From the NCBI GenBank assembly GCA_003153015.1, contig PMBS01000254.1, positions 9,568-73,567 on the forward strand: DNA of 64,000 nt. The letters run 5' to 3'. The position numbers were made by a program, and so were the translations under genes. Position 1 is the stretch's first letter, and each line of letters begins with the position of its first letter. This document shows, piece after piece, positions 5,482 through 61,954 of the stretch. The notes under the pieces were generated by a model. That model did not search any database. It saw only the letters and a program-made list of their open reading frames with translations, and was not told the DNA's origin. The DNA comes from Myxococcales bacterium. GTDB lineage: Bacteria > Myxococcota_A > Polyangia > Fen-1088.

Positions 5482-6198
5482 ATGACTGAGCAGGTGTGCA
5501 TTGACCGAGAATACCAGGATGACGTTCGGCGCTTGCGTGTACAACTGATCATGATGGGCGGTCGGGTCGAAACCCTCCTCGGCGCCAGCGTAAGGGCACT
5601 CACCGAGCGCGACCCCGAACTGGCCCACCGAAGCGTCGAGTCCGATTGCGCGGTCGAACAACACGAGATCGCGGTCGATTGCCTCTGCCGCAGAATTCTC
5701 GCGCGTCGCCAGCCGTTGGCCTCGGATCTGCGCTTCGTCACGAGTTCGCTCAGACTCGCGACCGATCTTGAGCATATTGCCGATCTGGGCGTCAGCATAG
5801 GACGGTGCGCGCTCGATCTGTGCGCCGAGGCGCCACTCCAACCCGAAGTGGGCCTTCCTCGCATGGCCACCGAGGTCGAGTCTATGTTGCACGAAGCCCT
5901 CGATGCGTTCGTCACGTCCGATGCAAGCAAAGCCGAGAAGGTCATCGCTCGTGACCGGTTAGTTGGCAACCTTTCCGCCCAGATCTTTTGCGAATTGCTT
6001 ACCCACGTAGGCGAGAACACTCAATGCATCACGCGGGTTTTGCGGCTGCAGTCAGCCGTCAAGTACGTTGAGCGCGTCGCAGACCATGTCGCCAACCTAT
6101 GCAAGATCGTCGCATTGATCGTTGGCGGAGAAGGTGCTCGCGACGCCGACAACTCGGGAGATTCTATTCGTGCTGTTCCGAACCACGAAAGAAACTGA
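5482..6198 (+). CDS. phoU: phosphate signalling complex protein PhoU
   Basis: Two PhoU repeats (DxxxDxLEL-type helices: RDPELAHRSVESD; LATDLEHIADLG; VERVADHVANL). Start placed at MTEQ rather than the upstream Met. Confidence 0.85.
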   Translation: MTEQVCIDREYQDDVRRLRVQLIMMGGRVETLLGASVRALTERDPELAHRSVESDCAVEQHEIAVDCLCRRILARRQPLASDLRFVTSSLRLATDLEHIADLGVSIGRCALDLCAEAPLQPEVGLPRMATEVESMLHEALDAFVTSDASKAEKVIARDRLVGNLSAQIFCELLTHVGENTQCITRVLRLQSAVKYVERVADHVANLCKIVALIVGGEGARDADNSGDSIRAVPNHERN

Positions 6199-6214: not shown

Positions 6215-7057
6215 ATGACCCGAACTCCGACGGGCCACGGCGCGCAGCCCACGCGTGCCCCGCAGCCGCTTAGCGCGGAGACGGCGCGCCGGTGCAAGGC
6301 TCGAGTCCTGCTGGTGGAGGACGAGGCGGATCTGGCCACCAGCCTCTCCTACAATCTGGAAGCGGCCGGCTACCAGGTGTCGAGCGCGATGGACGGCACA
6401 GCGGCACTGCGGCTGGCGACTGCCCAACCACCGGACATCGTTCTGCTGGATCTCATGCTGCCCGACATATCGGGACTGGAGGTGTGCCGACGGATTCGCG
6501 CCAGCGGCCAGACGCCTCAGCCGATCGTGATCATGGTTACCGCACGCGGTGAAGAGGTCGACCGCGTGGTGGGATTCGAGGTGGGTGCTGATGACTACTT
6601 GGTCAAGCCGTTCAGCGTACGCGAGTTGCTCCTCCGCATGGAGGCGCGGCAGCGCGCCCAAAGCGTTGCCGACGAGCACGAGCACGTCGGCACAGCCGGA
6701 GCTGCGCCGGGCAAGGCTCGCATCACCATCGGCAACCTCGAGGTTGACTCCGACTCCCACCAGGTCTTCGTCAATGGCAGCGAGGTTCACGTGAGTGCGC
6801 TCGAGATGCGTCTTCTGTTGCACCTTTTGGCAGTGCCAGGGAAAGTCCGCTACCGACGCGAGCTGCTGACCGAGGTGTGGGGCTACCACCCGGAGGTCTC
6901 CAGTCGGACTCTGGACACCCACGTGAAACGACTGCGCCAGAAGCTGGGCGAGGTCGGTGCCTACATCCATACGGTTCGCGGGGTGGGCTATCGCATCGTC
7001 GCACAGTCCGCCACGTCTGAGCCGCGCAAGCGAGATCCGGAAGGCAACAAAGGCTGA
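6215..7057 (+). CDS. OmpR/PhoB-family response regulator (paralog 1)
   Basis: Receiver domain (VLLVEDE, DIVLLDLMLPD, VKPF) plus winged-helix domain (LTEVWGYHPEVSSRTLDTHVKRLRQKLG, GVGYRI); start uncertain (Met at 6122 or 6215). Confidence 0.8.
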   Translation: MTRTPTGHGAQPTRAPQPLSAETARRCKARVLLVEDEADLATSLSYNLEAAGYQVSSAMDGTAALRLATAQPPDIVLLDLMLPDISGLEVCRRIRASGQTPQPIVIMVTARGEEVDRVVGFEVGADDYLVKPFSVRELLLRMEARQRAQSVADEHEHVGTAGAAPGKARITIGNLEVDSDSHQVFVNGSEVHVSALEMRLLLHLLAVPGKVRYRRELLTEVWGYHPEVSSRTLDTHVKRLRQKLGEVGAYIHTVRGVGYRIVAQSATSEPRKRDPEGNKG

Positions 7058-8787
7058 CAAAGATCGCGGCCAGTCGGGGCGATGGCATCGCGGGACAGGC
7101 CCAGCAGCGAAGCCAACGTGCGGGTGAAGGCATCGAAGCGTAGCGGTTCCGTGACCAACGTGCCTGCGGGCACACGGCCCGGCGCCCGCAGGTAGAGCGG
7201 CACGCTGCGGTCGAAGCGGCGGGGCGAACCGTGGTTGGTGCCCAGACCCGGATCGAGCTCGGCATCGAAGAAATCGTCCTGGTCCAGCTCGACGAAAAGG
7301 TCTGCGGCTACCTCGACCGGAAGCGACCGGCACAAGAGAGCGTCTGCGCGATCCGGGGAACAGGTGCGGGCGACCTGACGCACGTCCAGCACGGTGCGCA
7401 CGCGGAAGGACTGGCGCAAAGCCTTCTGGGCCACGCGGACGAGCCGCGCCTGATCTGCCGGCGCGACGGACGGCTTGGTCAGGTAGACAAAGGGGCCAGC
7501 CACGCCAGCAACCCAAGGTCCGGGACCGCCAAATTCGCGGGTCAAGGCACTGTCCAGAACCTCGCGCACGGTGTGTCCGGCTGCTGTGGAGCCGGCCTTG
7601 GCAGCTCCGCGCAGACGTCGAGTGGGGGCACAGGGTCGTTGCCAGGGGTCTGGGCTGGCGCACCAGGAGCGCTCGGCCGGCGCCAATTCAGGCAATGGGT
7701 TGATGCCGTGATCGCCGGTAAGGATGACGGCATAGGCGGTCGCGCCCACGGTCGCGTCGAGGAACGAGAAGAACCGCGCCAAGGCCTGGTCGAGCCGCAG
7801 CAGCTCGTCCCATGCCTCCCAAGACTGTGGCCCAAAGAGATGCCCGATGTAGTCGTTGGCGGAGAGCGACAGCGCAAGGAAGATAGGCTTGGAGGAATTC
7901 GCCGGATCGTTTACCGCCGCCTCCGCTAGCCCGAGTACGAGGTCGTCACCGAAGGGCGTGGAGCGCAGGGCCTCCGCCGATGAAACCGCGTGAGGGAAGT
8001 GATTCCCGAGAATGTGCGTCGATTCGCCCGGGTGAGCATCATTCGGGTAGGCATGTCGTGCGACCCACGCGCGCTCCTCCCCTTCCAGGGTCCAGGGTTT
8101 TTGCAGCAGTTTGGCCAAAGCCCCGCCGCCTCCGGCGTTTGCCGCCCATTCCGGCAGTTGCCCGTCCCCGGCAAACGGATTTGAACTGACCATGCGGGCC
8201 GACTTGGTGTCGAGCCACAGCACGAGGTCGGGATTGCGGCCGCCGCCAAACAACGCGCCACGATCTTTGAGAGAGAAACTGAATATGCGTCCCTTCGGAT
8301 GCGCTGCGCGCCACAGGTCAGCAACTGTGGCCACGTCCGAACGGAGGACTATGAGTGAGCTGCCCTCACCCTGCACAGACGTGCTGTCGGCAGCAACCAG
8401 GCGCGTGGCGCGATCACGAAGAATCGACACCTTGTCGACGTCACCCGGCCGGAGAATCTCGTTCGAGTAGATTCCGGTCTCGCGCGGCACACGCCCGGTG
8501 TACAGCGCCGCATGCCCGGGCGCGGTCTCGGTGACCGCATGCTGGAACTCCATTTCGCGCCCATAGAGTCCCTCGCGGCTCAGGCGGGTAAAGCCGCCGT
8601 TCGCAGGCAACTCTTGCGCCCGCTCTGCCATCACCCACGCCGCCAGTTGATCCACCACGATCGCCACCACCACGCGATAGCCTGTCCCGCCTGCCGGGCC
8701 AGTGGAAACCAGCTCACGTGTGGCATGGCACGTGGACAGGGCCGGCAGGGCGAGCGTGAGCGCGAGAAACCCAGATCTACTCATTGC
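6988..8787 (-). CDS. alkaline phosphatase / phosphodiesterase-family metalloenzyme (secreted)
   Basis: Signal peptide MSRSGFLALTLALPALS and alkaline-phosphatase-superfamily core (ILTGDHG, LSLSANDYIGH). Its 3' end overlaps the convergent response regulator by ~70 nt. Confidence 0.7.
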   Translation of the reverse strand, partial: AMSRSGFLALTLALPALSTCHATRELVSTGPAGGTGYRVVVAIVVDQLAAWVMAERAQELPANGGFTRLSREGLYGREMEFQHAVTETAPGHAALYTGRVPRETGIYSNEILRPGDVDKVSILRDRATRLVAADSTSVQGEGSSLIVLRSDVATVADLWRAAHPKGRIFSFSLKDRGALFGGGRNPDLVLWLDTKSARMVSSNPFAGDGQLPEWAANAGGGGALAKLLQKPWTLEGEERAWVARHAYPNDAHPGESTHILGNHFPHAVSSAEALRSTPFGDDLVLGLAEAAVNDPANSSKPIFLALSLSANDYIGHLFGPQSWEAWDELLRLDQALARFFSFLDATVGATAYAVILTGDHGINPLPELAPAERSWCASPDPWQRPCAPTRRLRGAAKAGSTAAGHTVREVLDSALTREFGGPGPWVAGVAGPFVYLTKPSVAPADQARLVRVAQKALRQSFRVRTVLDVRQVARTCSPDRADALLCRSLPVEVAADLFVELDQDDFFDAELDPGLGTNHGSPRRFDRSVPLYLRAPGRVPAGTLVTEPLRFDAFTRTLASLLGLSRDAIAPTGRDLCQPLLPSGSRLRGSDVADCATMR

Positions 8788-9287
8788 GTGCGACCGGAGG
8801 GAGCGCCTGGCGAACTCCCGGGGCAATCCATTGAAACGGCTCGACTTGAGTTGTCCTGGACAAGCTCGCTGCCAGCGCGACGAAATGCCCATGCCGGCGG
8901 CGGTCTCCCATCAGCGGCGAAAGGAACGAAGCCACAGCGGCCAAGCAACAAGAAAAAGCGCGTCCCAATCCCAGGCACACGGCATGCGTTTGCCTCGAAA
9001 TCGCTGTGGAAGCTGCCACAGATCACGAAGTCAAAACCTGGCAAGCGAGGTGACGCGTGATCCGCCACCATGCTCCACGCGGCGGATGGCTCATCAAGCG
9101 CGATCACTCGGAACCCTCTGGCGCGAAGCACTCGGCTCATCCAGCGTCGGGACTCTGCGTCCTGCAGTGCGACCAAGATCCGGGAAGACGGCTGGACACT
9201 GACCGGTTGGCCACCGTTGTCGTTGAATGCGCGGGTATTGAAATCTCTGCATGCGATGGAAGTGGGTGTGAGAGTCGAGGTCGCCAT
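8781..9287 (-). CDS. possible degenerate receiver-domain protein upstream of the phosphatase
   Basis: Frame continues upstream of the phosphatase start with a 4-7 nt overlap. Translation has a CheY-like pattern (ILVALQDAES...GFRVIAL...FDFVICG) but the acidic pocket is degenerate; only the C-terminal ~168 aa from an internal ATG is reported. Confidence 0.3.
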   Translation of the reverse strand: MATSTLTPTSIACRDFNTRAFNDNGGQPVSVQPSSRILVALQDAESRRWMSRVLRARGFRVIALDEPSAAWSMVADHASPRLPGFDFVICGSFHSDFEANACRVPGIGTRFFLLLGRCGFVPFAADGRPPPAWAFRRAGSELVQDNSSRAVSMDCPGSSPGAPSGRTQ

Positions 9288-9552
9288 GGGTCTGGTCCTT
9301 TCGCTTGACCAAGTATTGGCCAACTCCCCAGTCACGCTCGTGGCACCTCGGTGACAAGTCGGAAGAGAAACCGGGTTGGCGTCCTCCACCTTGCTCTGGT
9401 GGCGAGGGCGAAAGCGTCCGAACCGGGTCTCGCAAATGTCGCGCAACGGTAACGCTGTGTTCACGGAGACCCCGCTATGTTGGGTTTGGGTTCCACAGCT
9501 ACTACCCAACCTGCGAACCACAGTCAACCGAACCCGTGATTTGGAGGAGGAA

Positions 9553-9849
9553 ATGAACGACCCAAATGCAAATTCGCACGAAAAGCCGAGCAATTGCGTC
9601 CCTGGCGAGCGGGAAAGAAGGAACGTGCCGGCCGTCATTCCGAACAAGAATCCATGGGACGACAACGAACCCACTTGGCCGGGGACGGAGTACGACGACG
9701 ATGAGGCCGTGGCCGACGGGATGTGCGACGACGACAATGACCCGCCTTGGCCGTGGATGTCTGCGCTTCTCGCCTCTCCGCAACCGTCGCTGTGGGACGA
9801 AGCCATCGCCAGGATCCTCGCCTCCAAGTCCCGCAGCGACTCGGTCTAA
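9553..9849 (+). CDS. small acidic Trp/Asp-rich hypothetical protein
   Basis: ATG preceded by a perfect GGAGGAGG Shine-Dalgarno; 98 aa; local GC lower than surroundings; no family recognised. Confidence 0.45.
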   Translation: MNDPNANSHEKPSNCVPGERERRNVPAVIPNKNPWDDNEPTWPGTEYDDDEAVADGMCDDDNDPPWPWMSALLASPQPSLWDEAIARILASKSRSDSV

Positions 9850-9856
9850 TCGCCTA

Positions 9857-9873
9857 GGGAGCCAGGGTTCCCA
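9857..9873. repeat. REP-like palindromic repeat copy (GGGAGCCagAGGGTTCCCA variant)
   Basis: Imperfect inverted repeat of the same family as 9928, 10071 and 59331. Confidence 0.6.
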
Positions 9874-9927
9874 TGATCGCGTAGGCGAAGGCGGGCTTAG
9901 CCCGCCGGAGCCAGAGCGCGGGAGGGT

Positions 9928-9952
9928 GTGGGAACCCTTTCAGGGTTCCCAC
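9928..9952. repeat. REP-like perfect palindrome GTGGGAACCCT-ttc-AGGGTTCCCAC
   Basis: 11-bp perfect stem with 3-nt loop read directly; preceded by a second palindrome GGCGGGCttaGCCCGCC at ~9890-9907. Confidence 0.7.
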
Positions 9953-10070
9953 ATCAAAAGTGGGCCACCCAGGTCCAGGAGATTGCGACGAACCCAGGCG
10001 GCCCACAAATCCGACACGCGGGATAGCCTCCCGCGTGTAACGCCTCCGTCACGGATCGGACAACTATTGG

Positions 10071-10100
10071 CATGGGAACCCGCGCAGGGTTCCCGCGATG
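10071..10100. repeat. REP-like palindromic repeat copy (ATGGGAACCCgcgcAGGGTTCCCgc)
   Basis: Same GGGAACCC/GGGTTCCC inverted-repeat core. Confidence 0.65.
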
Positions 10101-10137
10101 GTGCGCGGCGAGCAAAGCTCGCCGGCTCCCCACGCGA

Positions 10138-12375
10138 CTATGACAGCAACGTGGGCTTGCCGAGCAGAGCGGGCAGCGCGCCAGTCGCTGCGGTCTTCGC
10201 CGGGCTTTCGCGCCCCGCCGCCACATATTCGTCCGTGCCCTCCCTCTGAGCCGGCGGCGTTGCCTCGGATTGCCTCGCCAGTTCAATGAAGCGATGCTGG
10301 CTGCGCCGCAATGGATCGCCATTCCCAGTGCGTAGACGTGTATAGGTCCCGTCGGGCAGCAACATGCGCGTCTTCACGTTGTCCTCCAGGCTGATGGTCA
10401 AGATTTCGTCGATCAAGCGGTCGCGGAGCGATTCGTCGTCGACCGGAAACATGACCTCAACACGACGAATGAAGTTGCGCGGCATCCAGTCGGCCGACGA
10501 CAGGTACACCTCACGCCGGCCGCCGGCGTGAAAGTGGAAGATGCGGGCGTGCTCGAGAAAGCGGTCGACCACGCTCAGCACGCGGATGTTCTCGCTCATG
10601 CCTGGAATTCCGGGCCGCAGGCAACAGATCCCGCGCACCAGCAGGTCGATCGACACCCCGTTCTGCGATGCCCGATACAGGGCGCGGATGACGTCCGGGT
10701 CGACCAGTGCATTCATCTTGGCCACGATGCGGCCTGAATGACCGTACATCCGCTCGCGCTCGATGAGTTCGACAATGCGCTCGGCAAGGCCCAGCGGTGC
10801 CACGGTAAAACGCTTCCACGAGGGCGGAGCGGAATATCCAGTCAGCAAATTGAACATGGCCCCGGTGTCGTCGGCAAAAGCCTCGCGCGCAGTGAAAAGC
10901 GAAATGTCCCCGTAGGTGCGAGCGGTAAGCGAATTGTAGTTCCCCGTCGAAAGATGCACGTAGCGACGGATGGCATCCCCCTCGCGGCGCACAACTAACG
11001 ATGCTTTGCAGTGGGTCTTCAGTCCCACCACCCCGTACACCACGTGCACACCCGCCTCTTCCAGCACGCGTGCCCAGGTGATGTTCCGTCTCTCGTCGAA
11101 GCGCGCCCGCAGCTCGATCATGGCGGTAACCTGCTTGCCATTCTCTGCGGCCCGGGTCAGCGCGGTGACGATAGGCGAATCGGCGCTGGTCCGGTACAAG
11201 GTCTGCTTGATGGCAAGAACGTCGGGGTCGTTGGCCGCCGCGGACACGAAATCCACCACGTGATCGAACGATTCGTACGGGAGGTGCAAGAGCACATCGT
11301 GCTCGGAAATGACCCGAAACATGTCCGCGTCGAGAAAGGCCGCGACTGGCTGAGGAGAAAACGCCTCGTCCCTGAAATCCCGCAACTCGTCGCGCGTGGC
11401 CAGCGGAGCCAGATCGGCCAGGTGGAGCGGTCCCTCCGCGGGGTAGACGTCATCCGGCTGCAAGTGCAGTGCCTTGCGCAGAAAGCTCTCTACCTCCGAC
11501 GGCGTGTCATGTGCGAGTTCCAGGCGCACTGCCTGGTTACGCTCGCGGCGACGCAGCTCACGCTGGATGGTCTTCAGCAGATCGTCCGCCTCGTCTTCAT
11601 CCACCGACAGGTCGAAATCGCGTGTCACGCGGAAGCAATGGCAGCCCATCACGCGAAAGCCGGGAAACAGCTCGCCCACGTGCATGGCAATCACGTCCTC
11701 GAGCAGGACGAAGGCGGCCCGATGGGGCGAGGACGGCGGGATCTCCACCAGGCGTTTCAGCACCGCCGGCACTTGCACAACCGCGAAAATGCGCGAGCGG
11801 CGAGCCACGCGCTGGCTCTCCTTGCGCAGGACAATGGCCAGGTTGAGGCTGCGGTTGCGCAGCACCGGAAAGGGGTGGCCCTGGTCCACCGCGAGCGGCG
11901 TCAGCACCGGCCACACGTTACGGCTGAAGTGCGCGTTCAGGAACCCCTTCTGCTCGGGGTTGAGTTGGTCAGGCGCCAGGATGGCCAGGCCCGCTTTGGC
12001 GGTCAGTTGGGGCGCGACAAAGTCGCGGAAGTTGCGGTACAGGGCCGCCACCATGTCGTGAGTGCGCGAGGAGATCGCCGCGAGCTGCTCTCCAGGCAAC
12101 ATCCCGTCTGCACCACTGTCGGCCACACCGCCGGCCAGCAACTGCTTGAGCCCGGCGACCCGCACCATGAAGAACTCGTCCAGGTTGGACGCCACGATGC
12201 CCTGGAACTTGCAACGTTCGGCCAGCGGCACATTCGGGTCACACGCCTCTTCCAATACGCGTCCGTTGAACTCCAACCAGGACAGTTCGCGATTGATGAA
12301 GTGGTGCGGGCACACATCGCTCCCTGCGCTGCCGAGCGCGTGGTCAGTCGAAGCAGAATGGCGCTTGGAAGACAA
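10138..12375 (-). CDS. ppk1: polyphosphate kinase 1
   Basis: 745 aa with PPK N-terminal (FINRELSWLEFNGRVLEEA), PLD-like C1/C2 domains (HxK motifs, VYLSSADWMPRN). Confidence 0.9.
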   Translation of the reverse strand: MSSKRHSASTDHALGSAGSDVCPHHFINRELSWLEFNGRVLEEACDPNVPLAERCKFQGIVASNLDEFFMVRVAGLKQLLAGGVADSGADGMLPGEQLAAISSRTHDMVAALYRNFRDFVAPQLTAKAGLAILAPDQLNPEQKGFLNAHFSRNVWPVLTPLAVDQGHPFPVLRNRSLNLAIVLRKESQRVARRSRIFAVVQVPAVLKRLVEIPPSSPHRAAFVLLEDVIAMHVGELFPGFRVMGCHCFRVTRDFDLSVDEDEADDLLKTIQRELRRRERNQAVRLELAHDTPSEVESFLRKALHLQPDDVYPAEGPLHLADLAPLATRDELRDFRDEAFSPQPVAAFLDADMFRVISEHDVLLHLPYESFDHVVDFVSAAANDPDVLAIKQTLYRTSADSPIVTALTRAAENGKQVTAMIELRARFDERRNITWARVLEEAGVHVVYGVVGLKTHCKASLVVRREGDAIRRYVHLSTGNYNSLTARTYGDISLFTAREAFADDTGAMFNLLTGYSAPPSWKRFTVAPLGLAERIVELIERERMYGHSGRIVAKMNALVDPDVIRALYRASQNGVSIDLLVRGICCLRPGIPGMSENIRVLSVVDRFLEHARIFHFHAGGRREVYLSSADWMPRNFIRRVEVMFPVDDESLRDRLIDEILTISLEDNVKTRMLLPDGTYTRLRTGNGDPLRRSQHRFIELARQSEATPPAQREGTDEYVAAGRESPAKTAATGALPALLGKPTLLS

Positions 12376-12408
12376 GGTTTAGGTCTTGCTCCGCGTTGAG
12401 ACCACCTT

Positions 12409-12436
12409 CTGTGACAATTCTGTGAACTCTTGTGAT
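12409..12436. promoter_or_regulatory. candidate Pho-box-like element: three ~11-bp phased direct repeats (CTGTGACaatt CTGTGAActct TGTGAT)
   Basis: Lies 35-60 bp upstream of the ppk1 start on the coding side; its reverse complement contains TTGTCAC/AGTTCAC half-sites resembling the E. coli CTGTCAT Pho box. Confidence 0.45.
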
Positions 12437-12469
12437 GCCCGCCAACCCTGCGTGTTACTGAGCATCTGT

Positions 12470-13969
12470 TCAAGCCACTTCGACCCGCAAACGGCGGCGA
12501 AATACCTGGCGAAACAGCGATGCCTCGCGCATCACGTCCCACATCTCCAGATCCATGGTTCCTCGCGCGGCCAGAGTCAAGACGATCTCGTGCGGCCGGA
12601 CTCGGGCCGTCAAACGTCGCACCGGCCGGGCGTGACTGCGATCGAGCGAGTCTGCCACACGCAGCAGGGTCGCCAGCTTGCGCACGATTACGGCCTCGCT
12701 GCGCGACAGCCCCGCCATGCCGCTGTGGTGGAGGTCAGGGTGGCTTCTGCGGTGATAGCGTGCGATGCGCGCAACCAGATCGCGCTCGCGGTCGGCCAAG
12801 CCCGGAATGTCCGTATTACGCACCAGATACTCCGTGTGACGATGGTGCTTCTGATAGTTCACGGAATTGCCGATGTCGTGCAACCACGCGGCTGCCTCCA
12901 AATACGGACGAACTGCGGCCGGCAAGCGGTGAATCTGCGGGATCTGATCGAACAGGGCCAACGCCAGCGTGGCGACCTGGCGTGCGTGCGCCTCATCGAA
13001 CTGAAACCGGCGCCCAAGCGCAAGCGCCTCATCAGCCAGAGAACGGTCGCGCTGACTGGTGTTGCGACGGTTGAGCAAATCGACCAGCAAACCGTCGCGT
13101 AGGCCTCGATCGACGGCCGTCACCGCATCCAGTGAAAGCCGGCGCGCCAGCGCCTCCAGAATCACAGCGCCAGCGAGCACAATATCGGCACGGGCTGGGT
13201 CAAAACGCTGCCGTCGCTCGCGCGGGCTCATGACCGCCAGTTCCTCGACCGCGCGGCCCAGTTGCTTGACCGTGGCCTGGTTGCTGCCTTCGGCCGCCGT
13301 GTAGTCAACCACCGCCCGGATCGAGCCCGAACTGCCCAACGCCACGCGGGGCGCGCCGGGGAGAACCTTGGGCAGCGACTCGGCCATGGCTTCCCGAGCA
13401 TAACCGCGCGCTAGTCGAAGCTGCTTGCTTGTGGTGGTGTGGGCCAACTTGAACAGCTCGGTCAGGCGAACTGCGCCCATCGCCAGACTCCAGAGGTGGG
13501 TGGGTCGGTCGCCCAACGCCACCGCCACCTCAGTCGATCCCCCGCCGATATCAACACACAGTGATCGGGTTTTGGGCGGCTTGCCGTGCAAGACGCCCAG
13601 GCAAATAAGTCGTGCCTCTTCTTTGCCTGAGATGATCTCCAGATCCAGCTTCGCCTCGCGTTGCACGCGCCGGACGATCTCGTCGCGGTTGCGCGCCTCA
13701 CGCAAGGCACTGGTCGCCACCGCGCGCACCCGAGCGCGATAGCGGCGGCACAGGGATCCATAGCGCCGCAGGGTGGCCACCAACCGCTCGACGGCCGGTC
13801 CCGGAATCGCGCCTCGCATGAACACGTCCTGTCCTGGCCGCACCGGATCCCGTTCCTGATGAGTGATCTCGATACTGCCGTCGGGCAAAGCGCGGCCCAT
13901 CTGCAAGCGCACGGCGTTGGCGCCTACGTCTACGGCTGCGATGATGGAATCAGTTCCTGGTGCTCTCAC
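12470..13969 (-). CDS. ppx: exopolyphosphatase / Ppx-GppA family with C-terminal HD domain
   Basis: Ppx/GppA N-terminus (IAAVDVGANAVRL, ASKH fold motifs) and HD domain. A GTG start at 13969 gives a normal N-terminus; the upstream ATG at 14083 would run through the shared promoter region. Confidence 0.8.
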   Translation of the reverse strand: MRAPGTDSIIAAVDVGANAVRLQMGRALPDGSIEITHQERDPVRPGQDVFMRGAIPGPAVERLVATLRRYGSLCRRYRARVRAVATSALREARNRDEIVRRVQREAKLDLEIISGKEEARLICLGVLHGKPPKTRSLCVDIGGGSTEVAVALGDRPTHLWSLAMGAVRLTELFKLAHTTTSKQLRLARGYAREAMAESLPKVLPGAPRVALGSSGSIRAVVDYTAAEGSNQATVKQLGRAVEELAVMSPRERRQRFDPARADIVLAGAVILEALARRLSLDAVTAVDRGLRDGLLVDLLNRRNTSQRDRSLADEALALGRRFQFDEAHARQVATLALALFDQIPQIHRLPAAVRPYLEAAAWLHDIGNSVNYQKHHRHTEYLVRNTDIPGLADRERDLVARIARYHRRSHPDLHHSGMAGLSRSEAVIVRKLATLLRVADSLDRSHARPVRRLTARVRPHEIVLTLAARGTMDLEMWDVMREASLFRQVFRRRLRVEVA

Positions 13970-14014
13970 GGTGCAAGGCTCCGGCTTGGCTAATCGCCCC
14001 TTGAGGCGTTGTAC

Positions 14015-14043
14015 GAAATTATGACAGGGCAACGTGACAAACC
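14015..14043. promoter_or_regulatory. candidate Pho box (minus-strand reading TTGTTGC-TTGTCAC-CTGTCATaatttc)
   Basis: CTGTCAT is identical to the E. coli half-site; half-sites at 11- and 13-bp spacing. Sits in the divergent region between ppx (minus) and response regulator 2 (plus). Confidence 0.45.
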
Positions 14044-14163
14044 AGCAACAATCGGACGGGCCGGCTCGTCTCCCTTTCCCCATGACCGTCCGCGAGATGG
14101 GAGAAGCACGAAAGTTTCAGCAACTTCACCGTCCCGTAACCTTGGGGCCGTAGCCTGTCGGCA

Positions 14164-14955
14164 ATGGTTGAATCCAGTCGTCGACCCTTGCCCCGCATCC
14201 TGGTCGTCGAGGACGAAGTCGACATCAGCGCCTCGTTGTCGTACAGCCTGAAGGCAATGGGCTATGAAGTGCAGGTCGCGGAACGTGGCGAGGCGGCGCT
14301 GGAGGCGTTGGCCAGCTTTCGTGCCGACTTGGTTCTGCTGGACATCATGCTGCCCGACATATCGGGATTCGATGTCTGCCGCCGCATACGAGCAGCGACT
14401 AGTGGTGTCCAGCCCGTGGTGATCATGCTGACCGCCAAGAGCCAGGAACTGAACCGCGTGGCCGGCTTCGAGGTGGGCGCCGACGATTATGTGACCAAGC
14501 CGTTCAGCATCCGCGAGCTCATGCTGCGCATTGAGGCGCGACTCAAGGCGCGACGGCCAGCGGCTGAGCCGGCCCCGGGATCGAAAGGCGCCAAGAACCC
14601 GGAAGACGAAGCGCGGGTGAAAGTGGGCCCGCTGGAAATCGACCGGGCTGAGCACCGCGTGTTCGTGTCCGGCGAGGAAGTCCGGGTTAGTCCACTGGAG
14701 ATGCGCCTTCTGCTTTTCCTGGTGCGAACCCCGGGCAAGATGCGTACGCGCAAGGAACTGCTGACCGAGGTTTGGGGCTACCATCCGGAGGTATCCAGCC
14801 GCACTCTGGACACGCATGTAAAACGCATCCGTGACAAGTTCGGCGCTTCCGGCGATCTCATTCAGACGGTGCGCGGGGTGGGCTATCGCTTGGCTGTGCA
14901 TGCAGAGCCGGCGGCACAGAAACCAGCAACGGCCACCCCAACGCGCAAAGGCTGA
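14164..14955 (+). CDS. OmpR/PhoB-family response regulator (paralog 2)
   Basis: 263 aa, receiver plus winged helix; highly similar to paralogs 1 and 3 (shared LLDIMLPDISGFDVCRRIRA, VAGFEVGADDYVTKPFS, LLTEVWGYHPEVSSRTLDTHVKRIRDKFG). Confidence 0.85.
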   Translation: MVESSRRPLPRILVVEDEVDISASLSYSLKAMGYEVQVAERGEAALEALASFRADLVLLDIMLPDISGFDVCRRIRAATSGVQPVVIMLTAKSQELNRVAGFEVGADDYVTKPFSIRELMLRIEARLKARRPAAEPAPGSKGAKNPEDEARVKVGPLEIDRAEHRVFVSGEEVRVSPLEMRLLLFLVRTPGKMRTRKELLTEVWGYHPEVSSRTLDTHVKRIRDKFGASGDLIQTVRGVGYRLAVHAEPAAQKPATATPTRKG

Positions 14956-14985
14956 AGAGGCAATGATGTGCGCAGCCGACGCATC

Positions 14986-15774
14986 TCACCTGCGCCGGGC
15001 GACGCTGCCCGGCGGATCGTGGCGACGGACCCGCTGCTGTGGCTTGGCCAGGCGATAGCCTACGCCATGCACTGTCTGGATCATCCACGCCATGGGCCCG
15101 AACTTGTCGCGGATGCGTTTGATATGGGTGTCGAGGGTACGACTGGAAACATCAGGGCGGTAGCCCCAGACCTCAGTCAGCAACTCGCGGCGCGTGTGCA
15201 TCTTGCCCGGCGAACTGGCCATGTATGCCAGCAGGCGCATTTCTTGGGCGCTGAAGCTGATCTCTTCACCCGCAAGAAAAACCCGGTGGCCTGCTTGATC
15301 GATCTCCAATGGTCCCAGGGTCAGGCGCTCGTCAGTCGTATGCTGGCCCCGGAGTTCGCCGACAGCAGCCAGCTCGGCGGTTTGGCGCGCCCGCAGCCGC
15401 ACCTCGATGCGCAACATCAGCTCGCGCAGGCTGAACGGCTTGGTCACAAAGTCGTCCGCTCCAACCTCGAAACCTGCTACCCGGTCACTTTCTCCGGTCT
15501 TGGCGGTCAGAATGACCACGGCTGGTTGCCGGGCCACCGCGCTGGCACGGATTCGACGACAAACCTCGAAGCCGGAGCAATCGGGCAGGCTGATGTCCAG
15601 CAAGACCAGGTCAGGGCACAAATCGGGAAACGCACGCATGGCCTCTTCACCAGTGCCGACGACCTGCACCTTGTAACCCGCAGCCTCGAGAATGTACGAC
15701 AGCGAACCGCTCAGATTAGGCTCGTCTTGCACGACGAGAATGCGCACGGGCGCCTGGGATGAGATCCCGAGCAT
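14986..15774 (-). CDS. OmpR/PhoB-family response regulator (paralog 3)
   Basis: Convergent with paralog 2; same domain architecture; start placed at MLGISSQ (internal Met). Confidence 0.8.
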   Translation of the reverse strand: MLGISSQAPVRILVVQDEPNLSGSLSYILEAAGYKVQVVGTGEEAMRAFPDLCPDLVLLDISLPDCSGFEVCRRIRASAVARQPAVVILTAKTGESDRVAGFEVGADDFVTKPFSLRELMLRIEVRLRARQTAELAAVGELRGQHTTDERLTLGPLEIDQAGHRVFLAGEEISFSAQEMRLLAYMASSPGKMHTRRELLTEVWGYRPDVSSRTLDTHIKRIRDKFGPMAWMIQTVHGVGYRLAKPQQRVRRHDPPGSVARRR

Positions 15775-15901
15775 GCGGCGACCATATTCGGGGTACCATG
15801 GAGATCGTGTTACAGCACTGCAACGTGATTGTGAATGCAATGTGGAGCCCATGGGCGTCATCGAGCGAATGCGTACCGCGCCATAGGAATGCGACGCGCG
15901 A

Positions 15902-16849
15902 CTACTGCGTCACCTTGATCTTGTATTGCTTGAAAGTCGTGCCACCGCGTGAATCGCGCAGCACGAGCCACAGGTAGACCGGCATTGCCGTATCCGGGGC
16001 CTTCCAGGTATTGCTGGTCGAGATTGCGACTTCGGTGCCTGCCACACCCGTGCGGTCGTGTTCAAACGACCCGGACGTGGCAAACCAGGACATGTACAAA
16101 CTCTCGGTTTGATCCACCAGCGCGTCGCCGCTCGGGTTGAGGACCGGGAACGTCTCGGCCGAGCTCGCCGTGAACCTTGCCTCGAAGACGACCGATTCGC
16201 CCGGCGACACGATCTGGGTGTCGAAATCGAGGTTCAGCCGGGAACCGTCGGCCCTGACAACATCGGTGGAGGCGATGCCGGGATCGTTGTTCGGTTGGTA
16301 CCGCGTGTTGTATTCGTCGACAATAGTCGTTGGAGCATTGGCCAGATTGCAGGCAATTCGCTCAAAGGCAAATCCGGTCAGGCTGCCGGTCGCTAGATCA
16401 GGGAATTTCACCCGAACCGGCAAGTAGTAGCCGCCGGTGCTATCCGGATCGCGCGGTCTGATCGCCGGCTGTCCCGCCGAAGGCGGGGGCGCAATGGGGC
16501 CGAACAGGGTGCAGGCGTTGGTGAGGACCGGGGTCTCGAAGGTCTGTCCCGTGGTCGGGCCAGGCGCGGGAGGATTGCAGGCACTGGCCACCGAATTGTT
16601 CTCGGCCGGGGGTTTGGGTGTCTCGCAAACATCCCAGCCTGCGGTGGCGTCGGTCACAGTTCCCGCGGGCGATGCAAGCAAGAAGGAGTACACCACGTCG
16701 GCCCCTGGCTTGGACTCGGGGGGCTCGCCCCTCACCGCGAGAAGAGCGTAGTCGGTGACGAGCGAGGGAGCCTGCCCCACCTCGGGCTTGCACCCGAGCA
16801 CGGTGCTGGCAAGAGCGACCACAAGAAGAGGTTGTTTTGCGTAGGCCAT
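15902..16849 (-). CDS. lipoprotein of unknown function (paralog of 53535..54557)
   Basis: Signal peptide with lipobox (ASTVLGC); start abuts the stop of the upstream TonB-dependent receptor; shared motifs GGYYLPVRV and WYATAGSFEHD with the cassette-B paralog. Confidence 0.7.
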   Translation of the reverse strand: MAYAKQPLLVVALASTVLGCKPEVGQAPSLVTDYALLAVRGEPPESKPGADVVYSFLLASPAGTVTDATAGWDVCETPKPPAENNSVASACNPPAPGPTTGQTFETPVLTNACTLFGPIAPPPSAGQPAIRPRDPDSTGGYYLPVRVKFPDLATGSLTGFAFERIACNLANAPTTIVDEYNTRYQPNNDPGIASTDVVRADGSRLNLDFDTQIVSPGESVVFEARFTASSAETFPVLNPSGDALVDQTESLYMSWFATSGSFEHDRTGVAGTEVAISTSNTWKAPDTAMPVYLWLVLRDSRGGTTFKQYKIKVTQ

Positions 16850-19501
16850 CTAGAACTCCAGGCGTGCACCCGCAACCGCAAGTATCGGCAGTCCGATGAT
16901 GTAGCTTCGCTGCTTGTAGTCCTGACTGTAAATAGTCTCCTCGGGATTCTTGCGATTAGTAACGTTTTGCACGTCGATGAACATGCTCAGCTTCGTCCGC
17001 CGCATGACGAATGCCTTTTCGCCACGGAGATCCAGTTGGTAGAAGGCCGGGATGCGAATGGAGTTGTGCGCTCCGAAGACGGGCTCATAGTAGCCGTTTC
17101 TGCCGAGATAGCTGTCCACCACCGGTGTGCGCGGCATCCCGCTGGAGTAGCGAAAACGTCCACCTACCACGAAGTCCCTGCCCAACTCGTAGCTGGCGAG
17201 GAGAGCCAGCACGTGGGTCTGGTCATAGTCGAACAAGCGAAATGCCTGATCAGGATGATCGCGGCGCTCGCTGCGTGACAGGGTGTAGGTCGCCCAGCCG
17301 AAGAAGCCCTTGAACAGTTCCTGTCGAAGCAGAACTTGGAGTCCAAACACGCGACCGGTTCCATCCTGGGCCAGCGCCTGTCCCACTGGCGGGGATGGAC
17401 TTTCGCTGCGTGAGACGAGGTCGTACAGTTTCTTGTAGAAACCCACGGATTCCAAGGTCAAGGTCGGACGCAGCTTGAACGAGAACCCACCGGTCAGGTG
17501 TACGGCATATGACCCCACAATTGACGGGTTGCCGAATACCGGGGACATGTCCGCGGGATCGGGCGGCTGGCCGTATACTCCCGCGCCGCTGGTGAGGGTG
17601 AGCTTGGGGGTAGGTCGCCACGCGATCTGCAAACGCGGATTGGGAAAGTTGCGCAGCACCGGGACGCTAATCGGATTGGGGGGAGCGTCGAGCCGAGAAT
17701 AGCCGACCGGGGGCGCGATATTGCTGAACGGAAGGCGATGATCCCCTTCGATCCAAGTGGGTTCGAAACGCAAGCCCGGCGTCACGGTCCAGTTGCCGAG
17801 CTTGATGTCCACCGTGGCATAGCTGGCCACGCTGAAGACAGTCACGTTCCAGTTGTCGGATGCGGTCTCGGATGGGGGGCGTTGGCCGAAGACGACGATG
17901 TCTCCTTCCCGGGGCGGCTGGTTCACTGAACCGTTCCGGCTGAGTTGGACTTGCTGTCCCTGTACATCCATGCCGACCAAGAGCACCGCCGTCGGATGAA
18001 TGCGCCGGCGCAGACTTCCGCGCAAAGCGTAGGACAAGGTCTGCGTGTCGAGCTGCGTGCTTTCATCGCCGAAAGTGTCTCGCTCGGCATTGTGGTCGAT
18101 GCCCATCGAGGGAGTCACGCGCACGCTGGAGCCATCGTCGAACAAGCGGCTGTAGCTGACGAAGATGCGGCGAAAAGAGGTGTCATTGTTCTGCGTGCGC
18201 AGATCTGCGGGGTCGCTGGCCGGAATGGTTCGTTGCAGGTGATCGTCCGACGCGAGAAAAGTCGCGGCGATCTCCTCGTCCTTGCGCAGGCTCAGGGAGG
18301 CCCGCGCCTGGTAGTCGTCGTAGCGCGGGATAGGAAATGAGTCGCCGATGTCGGCCGAGGTGACTCCCGATATCACGCGGTCGAGGTAGCTGATACGTCC
18401 AGCCACGGCCAAGCGCAGCCGTGGGGTCACTGCGGCTGACACCTCGGCCGAGGTGTCCATGATGTCGCCGGCAACATAGCCGTGCACGCCGGACGGGGGA
18501 AGCTGGCCGAGTTCGATGCGCACCAGACCGCCCAGCCCGCGTCCGTAGTCGGCGCCGTACGCCCCGGGCGAGAGATCGATGGACTTGACCAGATCGGAGT
18601 TCACCGTCGAGCGTAGACCGCCCATGTGGTACAGGCTGGGAATCTCCACCCCCTCAACCACCACCCTGGTCTCCTTGGGCGAGGAGCCCCAGACCACAAG
18701 CTGGCCTGAACCGAAGCTGGCGCGTCCCACCCCCGGCAGGTTCTGCACAACCTTGAGGGTGTCGCCCTGCGTGCCAGGAACCTTGCGCGCCTCTTCGGTG
18801 CGGATGCGGGTTTCCACCGCCTCCTTCTTGATGCGGGCCGCACGTACGATGACTTCCTCGTCGACGTCTTCCTCCCTCTGTTCGACGTAGTACTTCATGG
18901 TGCGCTTCTGGCTCGGCCGGATGGTTTCGTCGGTCAGCACAGTGACGAGCCGCGGATGTCGGATCTCAACCTTGTGCGCGCCAGGAGGCAGATCAGTGAA
19001 CGAGAAGGCCCCGGCCGCATCGGTCTTGGTGGCCAAGTCCAGGTCCTTGATACGCACGGTCACATCGGCCATGGGCTGCTTTTTGAATCGATCCAGAACC
19101 ACGCCCTCGAAGTTCACCTGTGGTCCGAGTGACACCATCTTGGTCACAATGGTGAAGTCGTAGCGGTAAGTGATCTTGACGGGAATGGCTTGTCCTCCGG
19201 CCTCCGCCGGGGTGAAGAGGAACTGCCGGGCAGCAGCAACCGCGGCGCTGTCGAAATCGGACCCGCCGCTTTCGACAACCTCGACCCCGCCCACCTTGCC
19301 GTCGTCCCCCACCTCGATCGAAAGCAGCACGCGTGCGGTGATGCCGGCGTCGTGCTTGTCCTTGGGGTATTCGGCCGGGACGAAATGAATCAGGCGCGGG
19401 GGCTTGGTGATGGCGACCGTTTCATCGGCACGCGAAGGCCCCGGGCAGACCGGGAACCCGGCGCCCACCAGAGCGGCCACAAAGACAAGGCGGTGGTGCA
19501 A
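16850..19501 (-). CDS. TonB-dependent receptor-like outer-membrane protein with N-terminal TonB-C-like domain and carboxypeptidase-regulatory-like domain
   Basis: 883 aa with signal peptide. The TonB_C signature (AEYPKDK...ARVLLSIEVGDDGKV...SGGSDFDSAAVAAARQFLFTPAE...PVKITYRYDF) is followed by a CarboxypepD_reg-like beta-sandwich, a plug-domain motif (GTQGDTLKVVQNLPGVGR) and a long barrel ending in C-terminal Phe. Confidence 0.8.
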   Translation of the reverse strand: MHHRLVFVAALVGAGFPVCPGPSRADETVAITKPPRLIHFVPAEYPKDKHDAGITARVLLSIEVGDDGKVGGVEVVESGGSDFDSAAVAAARQFLFTPAEAGGQAIPVKITYRYDFTIVTKMVSLGPQVNFEGVVLDRFKKQPMADVTVRIKDLDLATKTDAAGAFSFTDLPPGAHKVEIRHPRLVTVLTDETIRPSQKRTMKYYVEQREEDVDEEVIVRAARIKKEAVETRIRTEEARKVPGTQGDTLKVVQNLPGVGRASFGSGQLVVWGSSPKETRVVVEGVEIPSLYHMGGLRSTVNSDLVKSIDLSPGAYGADYGRGLGGLVRIELGQLPPSGVHGYVAGDIMDTSAEVSAAVTPRLRLAVAGRISYLDRVISGVTSADIGDSFPIPRYDDYQARASLSLRKDEEIAATFLASDDHLQRTIPASDPADLRTQNNDTSFRRIFVSYSRLFDDGSSVRVTPSMGIDHNAERDTFGDESTQLDTQTLSYALRGSLRRRIHPTAVLLVGMDVQGQQVQLSRNGSVNQPPREGDIVVFGQRPPSETASDNWNVTVFSVASYATVDIKLGNWTVTPGLRFEPTWIEGDHRLPFSNIAPPVGYSRLDAPPNPISVPVLRNFPNPRLQIAWRPTPKLTLTSGAGVYGQPPDPADMSPVFGNPSIVGSYAVHLTGGFSFKLRPTLTLESVGFYKKLYDLVSRSESPSPPVGQALAQDGTGRVFGLQVLLRQELFKGFFGWATYTLSRSERRDHPDQAFRLFDYDQTHVLALLASYELGRDFVVGGRFRYSSGMPRTPVVDSYLGRNGYYEPVFGAHNSIRIPAFYQLDLRGEKAFVMRRTKLSMFIDVQNVTNRKNPEETIYSQDYKQRSYIIGLPILAVAGARLEF

Positions 19502-20236
19502 TCAATCCCCCAGCTCAAAACGGCGGGCCAAGACATAGGTCCCTCCCGCGACCGGCTTGCCACAGGCCATGGCTGGCCGGAAGCGCCACTGTTTGACCGC
19601 GGCCACCGCGGCCGCGTCGAGTTCGGGGGAGACGCTGGCCAGCACCTCGACCGCCATCACCGAGCCGTCCGCGCCGACCACGATCTTCAGCTTGAGCTTG
19701 CCTTCGATCCCCTCGGAGCGTGCTGCAGCCGTGTACTCGATCTCGGTCTTGAATACGGGCTCAGGCTTGGAAGGCTCGTCCGTGCAGCGCTCCTCGATGT
19801 TCGGCCCTGCCCCCAGCTCCTGGCGCTGGCGGTGGTGATGCGCCTCGGGTTCGAAGGTGGCCACCTTGGTGGGCGCCACGGCCTGGGGGGCCCGCACGAT
19901 CGGGATTGCCACGGCATCGCCGATATCCTCGTTGCTCATGGCGATCTCGGTCGGCATGACCATGGTAGCCACCTTGGCTGCCGCAACTGGGGCCGCGACC
20001 GGCATGAGCTTGGGCGCGGCCGCGAGTTTCTGCTCCTTCGGCTTCGCATCCACCTTGGCCAGCTTGGGCGGAGCCTTGGGCTTGAGCGGCGCCTCCTTCT
20101 TCTTCTTCTTCTTGGCCTCCTCCTGCAACTGCACAACGTAGGTCTTGCCCGAGGCGCGGTGTTGCGATGCCGTGAGCAGGGCAAACGCAAACCCGGCGTG
20201 AATGACCATCGAAATAGCGACCGTGGACTTCTTCAC
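19502..20236 (-). CDS. tonB: TonB family energy transducer
   Basis: N-terminal TM, Lys/Pro/Ala-rich spacer, C-terminal TonB_C domain. Confidence 0.75.
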   Translation of the reverse strand: MKKSTVAISMVIHAGFAFALLTASQHRASGKTYVVQLQEEAKKKKKKEAPLKPKAPPKLAKVDAKPKEQKLAAAPKLMPVAAPVAAAKVATMVMPTEIAMSNEDIGDAVAIPIVRAPQAVAPTKVATFEPEAHHHRQRQELGAGPNIEERCTDEPSKPEPVFKTEIEYTAAARSEGIEGKLKLKIVVGADGSVMAVEVLASVSPELDAAAVAAVKQWRFRPAMACGKPVAGGTYVLARRFELGD

Positions 20237-20280
20237 GGCAAGACCTCACGACTGGGCAGCAAGTGGCAGAGCAATGTCCG

Positions 20281-21437: not shown

Positions 21438-21453
21438 GGGTCACCTTTCCTTT

Positions 21454-25742: not shown

Positions 25743-25781
25743 CGACGGATTTGCGTCGGATTTGTGACGGAAGCGCAACAG
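25743..25781. promoter_or_regulatory. 11-bp phased direct repeats (minus-strand GTCACAAATCC GACGCAAATCC GTCGC)
   Basis: Lies ~80-115 bp upstream of the cassette-A PstS-like gene start, in the divergent region shared with the small MYXO-CTERM ORF. Confidence 0.4.
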
Positions 25782-25928
25782 AAGAGACTACGGAGCTTGG
25801 GACGCAGTGCGAGTGGTCAACCTAGCCGGGAGTGTCGCGCAACGGTCGCGAATGGTTTGCCGAGACTTGGCAACCCTGCACCCAATTGCAGCGCGGGCAA
25901 TCTGCCTCCCGCCATCACGCAGGCTACG

Positions 25929-27052: not shown

Positions 27053-27080
27053 CGTGACTTGCCTGTCACATAGTTGTAAC
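27053..27080. promoter_or_regulatory. candidate Pho box (cGTGACttgc CTGTCACatag TTGTAACgaat)
   Basis: Half-sites CTGTCAC and TTGTAAC spaced exactly 11 bp, 70-90 bp upstream of the SBBP lipoprotein gene at 27152; closely resembles the element upstream of pstS (61848). Confidence 0.5.
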
Positions 27081-27151
27081 GAATTCTTCTCTATTGCCAT
27101 CGCCAAAGGCGCCTAAAAGAGGCTGCCATTTCCACTGCGTTTCCTGGCCAA

Positions 27152-40576: not shown

Positions 40577-40594
40577 ATGTGACAGGAGTGTCAC
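40577..40594. promoter_or_regulatory. ATGTGACagga GTGTCAC - 11-bp phased half-sites (also an inverted repeat)
   Basis: Lies ~280 bp upstream of the PstS-like gene at 40871. A second element, CGTCAGTTATCCGTTGCG at 40720-40742, resembles (as reverse complement) the element at 46662-46698 upstream of the cassette-B PstS-like gene. Confidence 0.35.
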
Positions 40595-40870
40595 CCTTCC
40601 TTTGCAAAGAGTTAACAAATCGAGGTCATCGACGTCGATGACGCTAGCAACTGAAAGCTGCGACTTCCGTCGGTGCGTTCGCTCTGGGTTGTGCGGGGCA
40701 GCGAGGGATTTCGCAAGAGCGTCAGTTATCCGTTGCGAATGGTTGGCAAAGCCCTCACACACATCCCGCTTGCAAGCTGCTATTCAGTGTGCCGCCGGAA
40801 TAGGGGAAGCGGCCAAGGGGGTGCGCGACCAAGCCGGCGCGGAAAACGAACGATTCAAGGAGGCAGCAAA

Positions 40871-42860: not shown

Positions 42861-42920
42861 CCAATCAACGAATCAACCAACCAGTCAGTCAATCAACCAA
42901 CCAGTCAGTCAGTCAGTCAA
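42861..42920. repeat. low-GC simple-sequence region: tandem 20-bp repeat (aatcaaccaaccagtcagtc x2) extended by (CAGT)4
   Basis: Read directly; lies between the putative promoter and the AAGGAGGA RBS of the 1172-aa lipoprotein gene. Confidence 0.7.
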
Positions 42921-48046: not shown

Positions 48047-48072
48047 GCATGCACGATCAAGAGGAGAAACAG

Positions 48073-50860: not shown

Positions 50861-50871
50861 GTTCCGCAAGC

Positions 50872-54557: not shown

Positions 54558-54712
54558 GGTCGTCGATCGCCGCGGACGGGATTTGCTAGACCCTGCCAAG
54601 TGAACGAATTGTGACAACTCAGGGCCTGAAGGCGTAACACAAGCGTAACAGACGCGAACCGCTAAACAGGGATTATCCACGCGCGGCACAGGAGAATGCC
54701 GGCCTGAGACTC

Positions 54713-58192: not shown

Positions 58193-58223
58193 CCAGCAGC
58201 AGCAGCGAGCCTAGAAATCCAAC

Positions 58224-59355: not shown

Positions 59356-59404
59356 ATCAGTAGACAAAGCCTCGGACCACCGGGTCCGGGGCTTTGTTTT
59401 GGGT

Positions 59405-61847: not shown

Positions 61848-61865
61848 TTGTAACGTAACTGGCAC
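61848..61865. promoter_or_regulatory. candidate Pho box TTGTAACgtaa CTGGCAC (11-bp phased)
   Basis: Lies 90-107 bp upstream of pstS in an AT-richer stretch; same half-site family as 27063-27080. Confidence 0.5.
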
Positions 61866-61954
61866 ATCCGCTTGAACCTCGAAGACCCAGACTGCTGAGC
61901 GGAAGGTGGGACGTCTCCCGCCTCGTATTTCAAGACGCACGAAAGGGTAGCCGC

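Follow-up and report, generated by a model that had tools for sequence, protein, structure and literature searches.

How three paralogous regulators of phosphate genes receive their signal when no histidine kinase is encoded beside them is the question raised by a stretch of 64,000 nucleotides from a Myxococcales bacterium (assembly GCA_003153015.1, contig PMBS01000254.1, positions 9,568 to 73,567 of the forward strand), called the window below. The answer favored here, held with a probability of roughly 60%, is a branched and autoregulated phosphate (Pho) circuit, in which a PhoR-type kinase with its gene at another place in the genome would feed three PhoB paralogs. The three response regulators (RR1, RR2 and RR3) are listed with their lengths in amino acids (aa) and their key receiver residues.

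RR1, 6215..7057, plus strand: OmpR/PhoB-type response regulator, 280 aa; E35-D36, D79, T109, Y128, K131; alternative gene-call starts at 6122 or 6314
RR2, 14164..14955, plus strand: OmpR/PhoB-type response regulator, 263 aa; E16-D17, D60, T90, Y109, K112; divergent from ppx
RR3, 14986..15774, minus strand: OmpR/PhoB-type response regulator, 262 aa; Q16-D17, D60, T90, F109, K112; closes cassette A

Three intact paralogous regulators

The open reading frames (ORFs) of RR1, RR2 and RR3 are intact, agree in their coordinates with the gene calls, and translate into full-length receiver and winged-helix domains. Precomputed Pfam annotation of identical metagenome contigs places PF00072 and PF00486 on each protein, the domain pair of the OmpR/PhoB subfamily. 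An earlier note on this DNA, made from the letters alone, had described the three as paralogs with long identical stretches, and this description holds: pairwise identity is 57% between RR1 and RR2, 58% between RR2 and RR3, and 50% between RR1 and RR3, and the longest identical run extends over 24 aa (ELLTEVWGYHPEVSSRTLDTHVKR). The recognition helix is identical in all three (common stretch SSRTLDTH[VI]KR[LI]R), which makes it plausible that they recognize similar DNA sites, as had also been proposed. The nearest solved structure is that of the phosphate regulator RegX3 of Mycobacterium tuberculosis, to which the acidic pocket, the acceptor Asp, the Thr and the Lys align; a full-length alignment is obtained with MtrA as well. 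The set of phosphorylation residues is complete in RR1 and RR2, while one acidic residue is replaced in RR3, and all three have the residues expected of the subfamily. Atypical OmpR-type regulators that act independently of phosphorylation have lost the acceptor Asp or several pocket residues; here, the sole change is the E-to-Q replacement in RR3 orthologues.

The ratio of nonsynonymous to synonymous substitution rates (dN/dS), calculated against two other species, is 0.13-0.17 for RR1, 0.10-0.12 for RR2 and 0.13-0.14 for RR3, and all three window paralogs are under purifying selection. These values bear on an explanation in which the regulators are redundant or decaying duplicates without a distinct role, and in which the absence of a kinase is an artifact of assembly from metagenomic reads or an accident of gene order. 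The DNA was indeed assembled from a metagenome, and myxobacteria have large families of paralogs (PMC8538405). However, an identical gene arrangement was assembled independently from many samples (more than 20 contigs each), synteny is kept in other species (loci L016, L021 and L022; locus numbers are those of the survey described below), the frames are intact, and the catalytic residues are conserved. Decaying duplicates were rejected on the basis of dN/dS and synteny, and this explanation is regarded as very improbable.

Search for a histidine kinase

The statement that the 64 kb contains no histidine kinase was upheld by four checks. Precomputed Pfam annotation of every called gene in the window includes no HisKA or HATPase gene; a pattern search for the H-box together with the G1/G2 boxes gave zero matches in six-frame ORFs of at least 100 aa; and ten large, otherwise unannotated ORFs carry no kinase domain according to Pfam. 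In addition, a hidden Markov model of the histidine kinase core, built from 61 kinases adjoining related regulators (8 of 8 tested were confirmed by Pfam), found no match in six-frame ORFs of at least 60 aa from the window, its flanks (-9.7 kb to +9 kb) and nine related loci. A cognate kinase lying just outside the window would have ended the orphan status of the regulators, and none was found within about 9 kb on either side. On longer contigs, the region without a kinase extends beyond the window by about 9.7 kb on the upstream side and 9 kb on the downstream side, so that kinases are absent over about 83 kb, and no regulator gene in the window and about 9 kb on each side adjoins, or shares an operon with, a gene for a PhoR-type kinase. 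Two proteins of 315 aa and 340 aa, always encoded 5′ of RR3-type genes, were considered as hidden sensors and rejected, as both are lipoproteins with a lipobox, lack any transmembrane or cytoplasmic part, and have no hit in Pfam or NCBIfam.

The earlier note had called a cluster of three kinase-less copies next to phoU notable, which overstates the case. Orphans account for about 35% of myxobacterial two-component genes (PMC4603909, Table 2), and an orphan PhoP4 is already described in Myxococcus xanthus (PMC4415409); being kinase-less is therefore not notable by itself in a myxobacterium.

A clade of kinase-less regulators

A scan with RR2 over species-representative genomes yielded 80 loci, and a neighbor-joining tree was constructed from all the regulators encoded in them. 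RR1, RR2 and RR3 form one clade with the regulators of L016-L026, which come from about ten related Myxococcota metagenome-assembled genomes (MAGs). None of the 14 clade members outside the window has a kinase within 6 kb. A HisKA-HATPase gene lies immediately 3′ of most outgroup PhoB/PhoP-like regulators, which provides a positive control for the kinase-detection method. The kinase-less state is a property of the clade. Within it, RR1 branches first in the tree, and RR2 and RR3 are later duplicates.

The gene contexts are kept across genomes: the phoU-RR1 adjacency in L022 and L023, the RR-ppx-ppk order in L016, L021 and L019, and a receptor-lipoprotein-RR module in L021, L017, L018 and L026. 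The gene order of L023 comprises a canonical regulator-PhoR pair (HAMP-PAS-HisKA-HATPase; named PhoR by JGI), a porin, pst genes, phoU and then the clade regulator, and canonical and orphan regulator types thus coexist in one genome. Linkers and C-terminal tails are longer in the clade than in canonical relatives. In the recognition helix, clade members and the kinase-paired PhoB-like regulators of Myxococcota are nearly identical, and both groups probably read the same DNA core.

These observations also bear on the possibility that the clade works independently of kinases, its activity being set by expression level through a Pho-box cascade, by small phosphodonors of the acetyl phosphate type, or by protein partners such as PhoU, with RR3 as an atypical member. 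No clade member in about ten genomes has a kinase nearby, Q takes the place of E/D in the acidic pocket of RR3 orthologues, RR1 and PhoU are close in translational terms, and the lengthened linkers and tails set the clade apart from canonical relatives. Nevertheless, the acceptor Asp, the Thr, the Lys and the second acidic residue are invariant across all clade members, which would be unexpected if phosphorylation were dispensable; the pocket is complete in RR1 and RR2; and L023 keeps a canonical PhoR at the same locus as its clade regulator. Kinase independence is therefore considered improbable. A more elaborate form, in which the whole clade would have escaped dedicated kinase control, is held to be quite improbable: an orphan PhoB transcriptional cascade would then be set by expression level, by contact with PhoU (RR1), or by small or polymeric phosphodonors linked to the neighboring ppk/ppx genes (RR2), and RR3 (Q16), insensitive to phosphorylation, would act as a modulator by competition for these Pho boxes.

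A candidate Pho box

The half-site of the Escherichia coli Pho box has the consensus CTGTCAT. In the window, a motif was found by eye in promoters as tandem units in an 11-bp phase with a degenerate fourth position; a search of intergenic DNA for exact 6-mer repeats at 11-bp spacing returned only a few matches. The pattern TGTnAC-N5-TGTnAC with at most one mismatch has 14 matches in the window against 1.85 expected, a number reached in 0 of 100 shuffles. Thirteen of the 14 fall within the 7.4 kb of intergenic DNA, where 0.16 would be expected under a first-order Markov model (reached in 0 of 500 simulations). The sites are listed below; their function as Pho boxes is putative.

RR2 proximal promoter, 14124..14156, plus strand: CTTCAC at 14124 and CGTAAC at 14135 in 11-bp phase, with a -10-like TAGCCT at 14151-14156; putative function
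ppx site, 14018..14050 (motif match at 14034), minus strand: three Pho-box-like units TGTTGC / TGTCAC / CCTGTCAT, in the sense direction for ppx, in the ppx/RR2 divergent region
RR3 upstream site, 15808..15851: four 11-bp-phased units TGTTAC, TGCAAC, TGTGAA, TGTGGA in the 127-bp lipoprotein-RR3 gap, 34-77 nt before the RR3 start
ppk site, 12410..12443: three Pho-box-like units TGTGAC / TGTGAA / TTGTGAT between ppx and ppk, 35 nt before the ppk start; kept in L016, L021 and L022
Cassette A site, 25752..25785: weaker Pho-box-like units before the first gene (PstS-like, 427 aa, minus strand); position weight matrix (PWM) matches at 25752, 25763 and 25764, outside the training set
pstS site, 61849..61870, plus strand: Pho-box-like TGTAAC-N5-TGGCAC, sense, about 105 nt 5′ of pstS (named by Pfam)
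Site before a secreted protein gene (666 aa), 27053..27085, plus strand: three Pho-box-like units CGTGAC / TGTCAC / TGTAAC
Divergent intergenic site, 40578..40599, plus strand: exact TGTGAC-N5-TGTCAC
Unit cluster, 54599..54655: Pho-box-like units after cassette B, 5′ of a 120-aa ORF and a 965-aa metallophosphoesterase gene

Regarding the regulator promoters, two to three units on the sense strand precede a -10-like hexamer, which is spaced 16 nt from the start of the last unit and 7-20 nt from the ATG. In the RR2 promoter, TAGCCT has this spacing of 16 nt on one side and 7 nt to the ATG on the other, and this layout recurs in L021 and L016 and likewise upstream of regulators in L017, L019, L023 and L026. 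The four units upstream of RR3 are nearly identical in L021 and L016, and 15808..15851 is a candidate autoregulatory promoter of RR3. The ppx site is kept at the orthologous place in L016, L021 and L022. A PWM trained on window sites, with no other genomes in the training, finds sites at orthologous positions in the same three loci and directly 5′ of regulator genes in L017, L018, L019, L025 and L026. Its two top scores in the window are those of the 27053..27085 site and of 54634, and a weaker site lies upstream of phoU at 5076. By computation, the tandem repeats in 11-bp phase that characterize a Pho box precede the phosphate genes pstS, ppk and ppx as well as RR2 and RR3. The proposal of the earlier note that the cassettes are under layered control gains support from Pho-box-like repeats, which precede RR2 and RR3, the polyphosphate genes ppk and ppx, pstS, cassette A and further operons.

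The shared motif also bears on an alternative in which each paralog has its own distal orphan kinase and responds to a different signal, so that the island would integrate several inputs; RR2, for example, might sense polyphosphate or energy status, and RR3 the availability of substrate at the TonB-dependent cassette. In line with this, the association of each paralog with its own gene module is stable from one genome to the next, identity among the paralogs is just 50-58%, with differences in the α1 region, the usual determinant of kinase specificity, and myxobacteria encode many orphan kinases (PMC4603909). However, the three still resemble each other closely in the α1 segment (SLSYxLxAxGY), and no candidate kinases are known. 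Identical recognition helices together with one promoter motif imply a heavy overlap of outputs, which counts against separate kinases. This alternative is considered unlikely.

Beside the ppk gene, a stretch of 1.35 kb between the phosphatase gene and ppk (8785-10137) has no confident gene, the callers being split between a 285-aa and a 98-aa ORF. It holds Pho-box-like sites at 9340 and 10036 and a hairpin element, and no Rfam family matches it; an Rfam scan of the window as a whole detected no RNA family.

The proposed circuit

In the branched circuit fed by a distant PhoR-type kinase, RR1, RR2 and RR3 would be functional, phosphorylation-dependent transcription factors of the PhoB family, belonging to a lineage-specific Myxococcota clade whose genes would have lost their linkage to phoR. 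The regulators would bind the tandem, 11-bp-phased TGTnAC repeats, as putative Pho boxes, in the promoters of the island. The ATG of RR1 lies 16 nt past the stop codon of phoU, and an ATG/TTG start occurs at the same position in L022; phoU and RR1 are probably co-transcribed, and RR1 would be made along with PhoU. As RR2 and RR3 have Pho-box promoters of their own, auto- or cross-activation is predicted for both, which would add a positive-feedback or feed-forward layer to the cascade. The paralogs adjoin different modules: RR1 signaling and transport, RR2 polyphosphate turnover, and RR3 outer-membrane uptake. The phosphodonor would most likely be a PhoR-type kinase (HAMP-PAS-HisKA-HATPase) with its gene at another genomic location, and the pathway would thus be branched, from one kinase to several regulators.

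Several observations weigh against this circuit. The first acidic pocket residue of RR3 is Gln, within a VVQDE motif kept in 3 of 3 RR3 orthologues, a replacement that could impair Mg2+ binding or phosphorylation. The PhoR of the host organism itself was not found: a query with the PhoR of L023 returned 4573 matches, with PhoR proteins of Polyangia numbering in the thousands, and both of the contigs that were inspected belong to other organisms (other samples, or an organism with 70% GC). In addition, the PWM was trained on window sites, the near-palindromic repeat unit (TGTnACA) leaves the orientation of the box undecidable, and a scan for canonical sigma-70 promoters and intrinsic terminators around RR2/RR3 found nothing. 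Family scores point in the same direction. TIGR02154 (PhoB) is the top NCBIfam family for all three regulators, with 216.5, 213.2 and 198.8 bits against an equivalog cut-off of 296.2 that none of them reaches, and NF053854, a second PhoB equivalog model, gives 189, 198 and 184 bits against a cut-off of 270. Kinase-paired Myxococcota relatives score 242-257 bits on TIGR02154, likewise below the cut-off, and the window regulators lie 25-58 bits lower than these relatives. The designation "PhoB-type" used earlier is consequently apt at the subfamily level and not at that of the equivalog: judged by these scores, the window proteins are a more derived branch within a divergent, phylum-wide PhoB-like radiation, and are OmpR/PhoB-subfamily members instead of PhoB equivalogs.

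A different layout of the Pho locus was seen in a related organism, on a Polyangia contig with 70% GC (L107/L108), where the genes flanking a canonical phoB-phoR pair are PhoU_div-PHO4 (Pit-type transporter), ppx, and those for a CHAD protein and a Ser/Thr kinase.

Comparison with known systems

PhoP4 of M. xanthus reportedly interacts with PhoR2 and probably with another kinase too, according to work by Pham and coworkers in 2006. M. xanthus has three PhoR-PhoP pairs (PhoR1-P1, PhoR2-P2 and PhoR3-P3) in addition to this orphan, and resembles the window organism in belonging to the same phylum and in having several PhoB/PhoP-like phosphate regulators of the OmpR family, at least one of them without an adjacent kinase gene (PMC4415409). 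In contrast, the window regulators are all three orphans, form their own clade and are sited inside a Pho gene cluster. The kinase-less regulators of Myxococcaceae and Archangium (L083, L055, L061 and L028_10001) branch separately from the window clade in the neighbor-joining tree of the surveyed loci. Archangium and its relatives (L027-L029, L031, L032 and L091) encode a regulator-kinase pair and, 1.1-2.5 kb downstream, a second, kinase-less PhoB-like regulator; these second regulators group with Myxococcus and Corallococcus orphans in a clade of their own, which could be the PhoP4 lineage.

In Caulobacter crescentus, phoB belongs to a pstCAB-phoU-phoB operon and phoR is encoded separately (PMC11208175, Fig. 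1B legend), an arrangement similar to that of RR1, which directly follows phoU without a kinase beside it. The window differs in that phoU-RR1 is detached from pstSCAB, two further paralogs are present, and no phoR is nearby. E. coli PhoB and M. tuberculosis RegX3 share with the window regulators the domain architecture and phosphorylation residues, and their direct repeats the 11-bp phasing; the TGTCAC-like core of the window resembles the E. coli half-site. Unlike these systems, the window has no phoBR or senX3-regX3 operon, the linkers and tails of the clade are longer, the scores lie under the PhoB cut-off, and the repeat units are near-palindromic TGTnAC(A).

The components are ordinary, and the arrangement is a variation on what myxobacteria already show. 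The novelty is modest and consists of a distinct conserved clade, where every copy in the Pho island is an orphan tied to its own module, together with a defined and conserved cis-element with apparent autoregulation. If the circuit is real, one signal fanned out to three self-amplifying PhoB paralogs would control a very large phosphate-scavenging and polyphosphate island in an uncultured peat myxobacterium, providing a compact natural case of a one-to-many two-component pathway with a feed-forward layer. The candidate Myxococcota Pho box could be used for predicting Pho regulons in MAGs of phosphorus-limited peatlands. The value thus lies in conserved wiring and a testable cis-element and not in a new type of protein.

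The phosphate gene island and other sequence elements

The window, a metagenome contig with 63% GC, was also assembled from many peat and fen samples, for example as JGI 3300048786 contig Ga0494725_0000058 (78.7 kb) and as ENA WOOD18-1 scaffolds. The nearest genomes by RR2 are the "Myxococcales bacterium" MAGs fen_1121 and fen_1103 (87-88% identity), and the Sua5 protein of MAG GCA_003160835.1 is identical to that of the window. According to Pfam on called genes and NCBIfam, the window is essentially a single phosphate island. Its gene order begins with purH/D/E, phoU-RR1, a PafA-like phosphatase, ppk, ppx, and RR2 convergent with RR3, and continues with cassette A, secreted repeat proteins, the paralogous cassette B, a metallophosphoesterase, pstS and pstC. 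On longer contigs, the end of the window is followed by pstA, pstB, a second phoU, a low-molecular-weight phosphatase, another metallophosphoesterase and a third receptor. By predicted gene content, this is a phosphate acquisition and storage island of at least 80 kb, comprising pstSCAB-phoU, phoU-RR1, the PafA-like phosphatase, ppk, ppx, two TonB-dependent uptake cassettes and metallophosphoesterases. The immediate neighbors of RR1 and RR3 are as follows.

phoU, 5482..6198, plus strand: 238 aa; TIGR02135 phoU_full with 161.5 bits against a cut-off of 130; PF01895; directly 5′ of RR1
TonB-dependent receptor (883 aa) with a translationally coupled 315-aa lipoprotein, 15902..19501, minus strand: conserved neighbors upstream of RR3-type regulators, neither of them a kinase

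The second phoU, which belongs to pstSCAB, lies about 55 kb from phoU-RR1. Of the three-copy cluster next to phoU that the earlier note had described, the part concerning RR1 stands, since RR1 adjoins phoU, while the other two are 8 kb distant. As had been noted, RR2 and RR3 are convergent neighbors beside ppx and cassette A, with 30 bp between their stop codons; RR2 adjoins ppx, and RR3 sits 3′ of the TonB-dependent receptor and lipoprotein of cassette A, separated from the lipoprotein gene by a gap of 127 bp.

Cassettes A (15902-25665, minus strand) and B (46781-54557, plus strand) are paralogous and have in common the order PstS-like secreted protein, small ORF, phosphate-type porin, lipoprotein, TonB-dependent receptor and lipoprotein. 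Cassette A contains a PstS-like protein, porin O/P, lipoprotein, ExbB, ExbD, TonB, TonB-dependent receptor and lipoprotein, with ExbB-ExbD-TonB being present besides the order shared with cassette B. The cassette receptors bear an N-terminal TonB_C domain, and three cassette lipoprotein families have no match in Pfam or NCBIfam.

Several repeated elements also occur in the window. Two copies of an element (9907-9956 and 59310-59359) are 82% identical and contain a perfect 12-14-bp hairpin, TGTGGGAACCCT-TTC-AGGGTTCCCACA, with folding z-scores of -2.6 to -4.1 on the plus strand; one copy lies 3′ of ppk, and the other in a divergent intergenic region. The final 90 nt of the 965-aa metallophosphoesterase gene, including the stop codon (58106-58198), are repeated 1 kb downstream with 81% identity (59127-59219), and this repeat could be a remnant of a second copy of the gene. 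The genes for two large secreted proteins of 776 aa and 1172 aa, for which nothing exceeds the Pfam gathering cut-off, share DNA blocks of 77-91% identity (32406-33400 and 45307-46304) at a constant offset of 12.9 kb, a pattern suggestive of partial duplication in the recent past. A short tetranucleotide-like repeat (CAATCAAC / CAGTCAGT) at 42862-42917 is located just 5′ of the 1172-aa gene.

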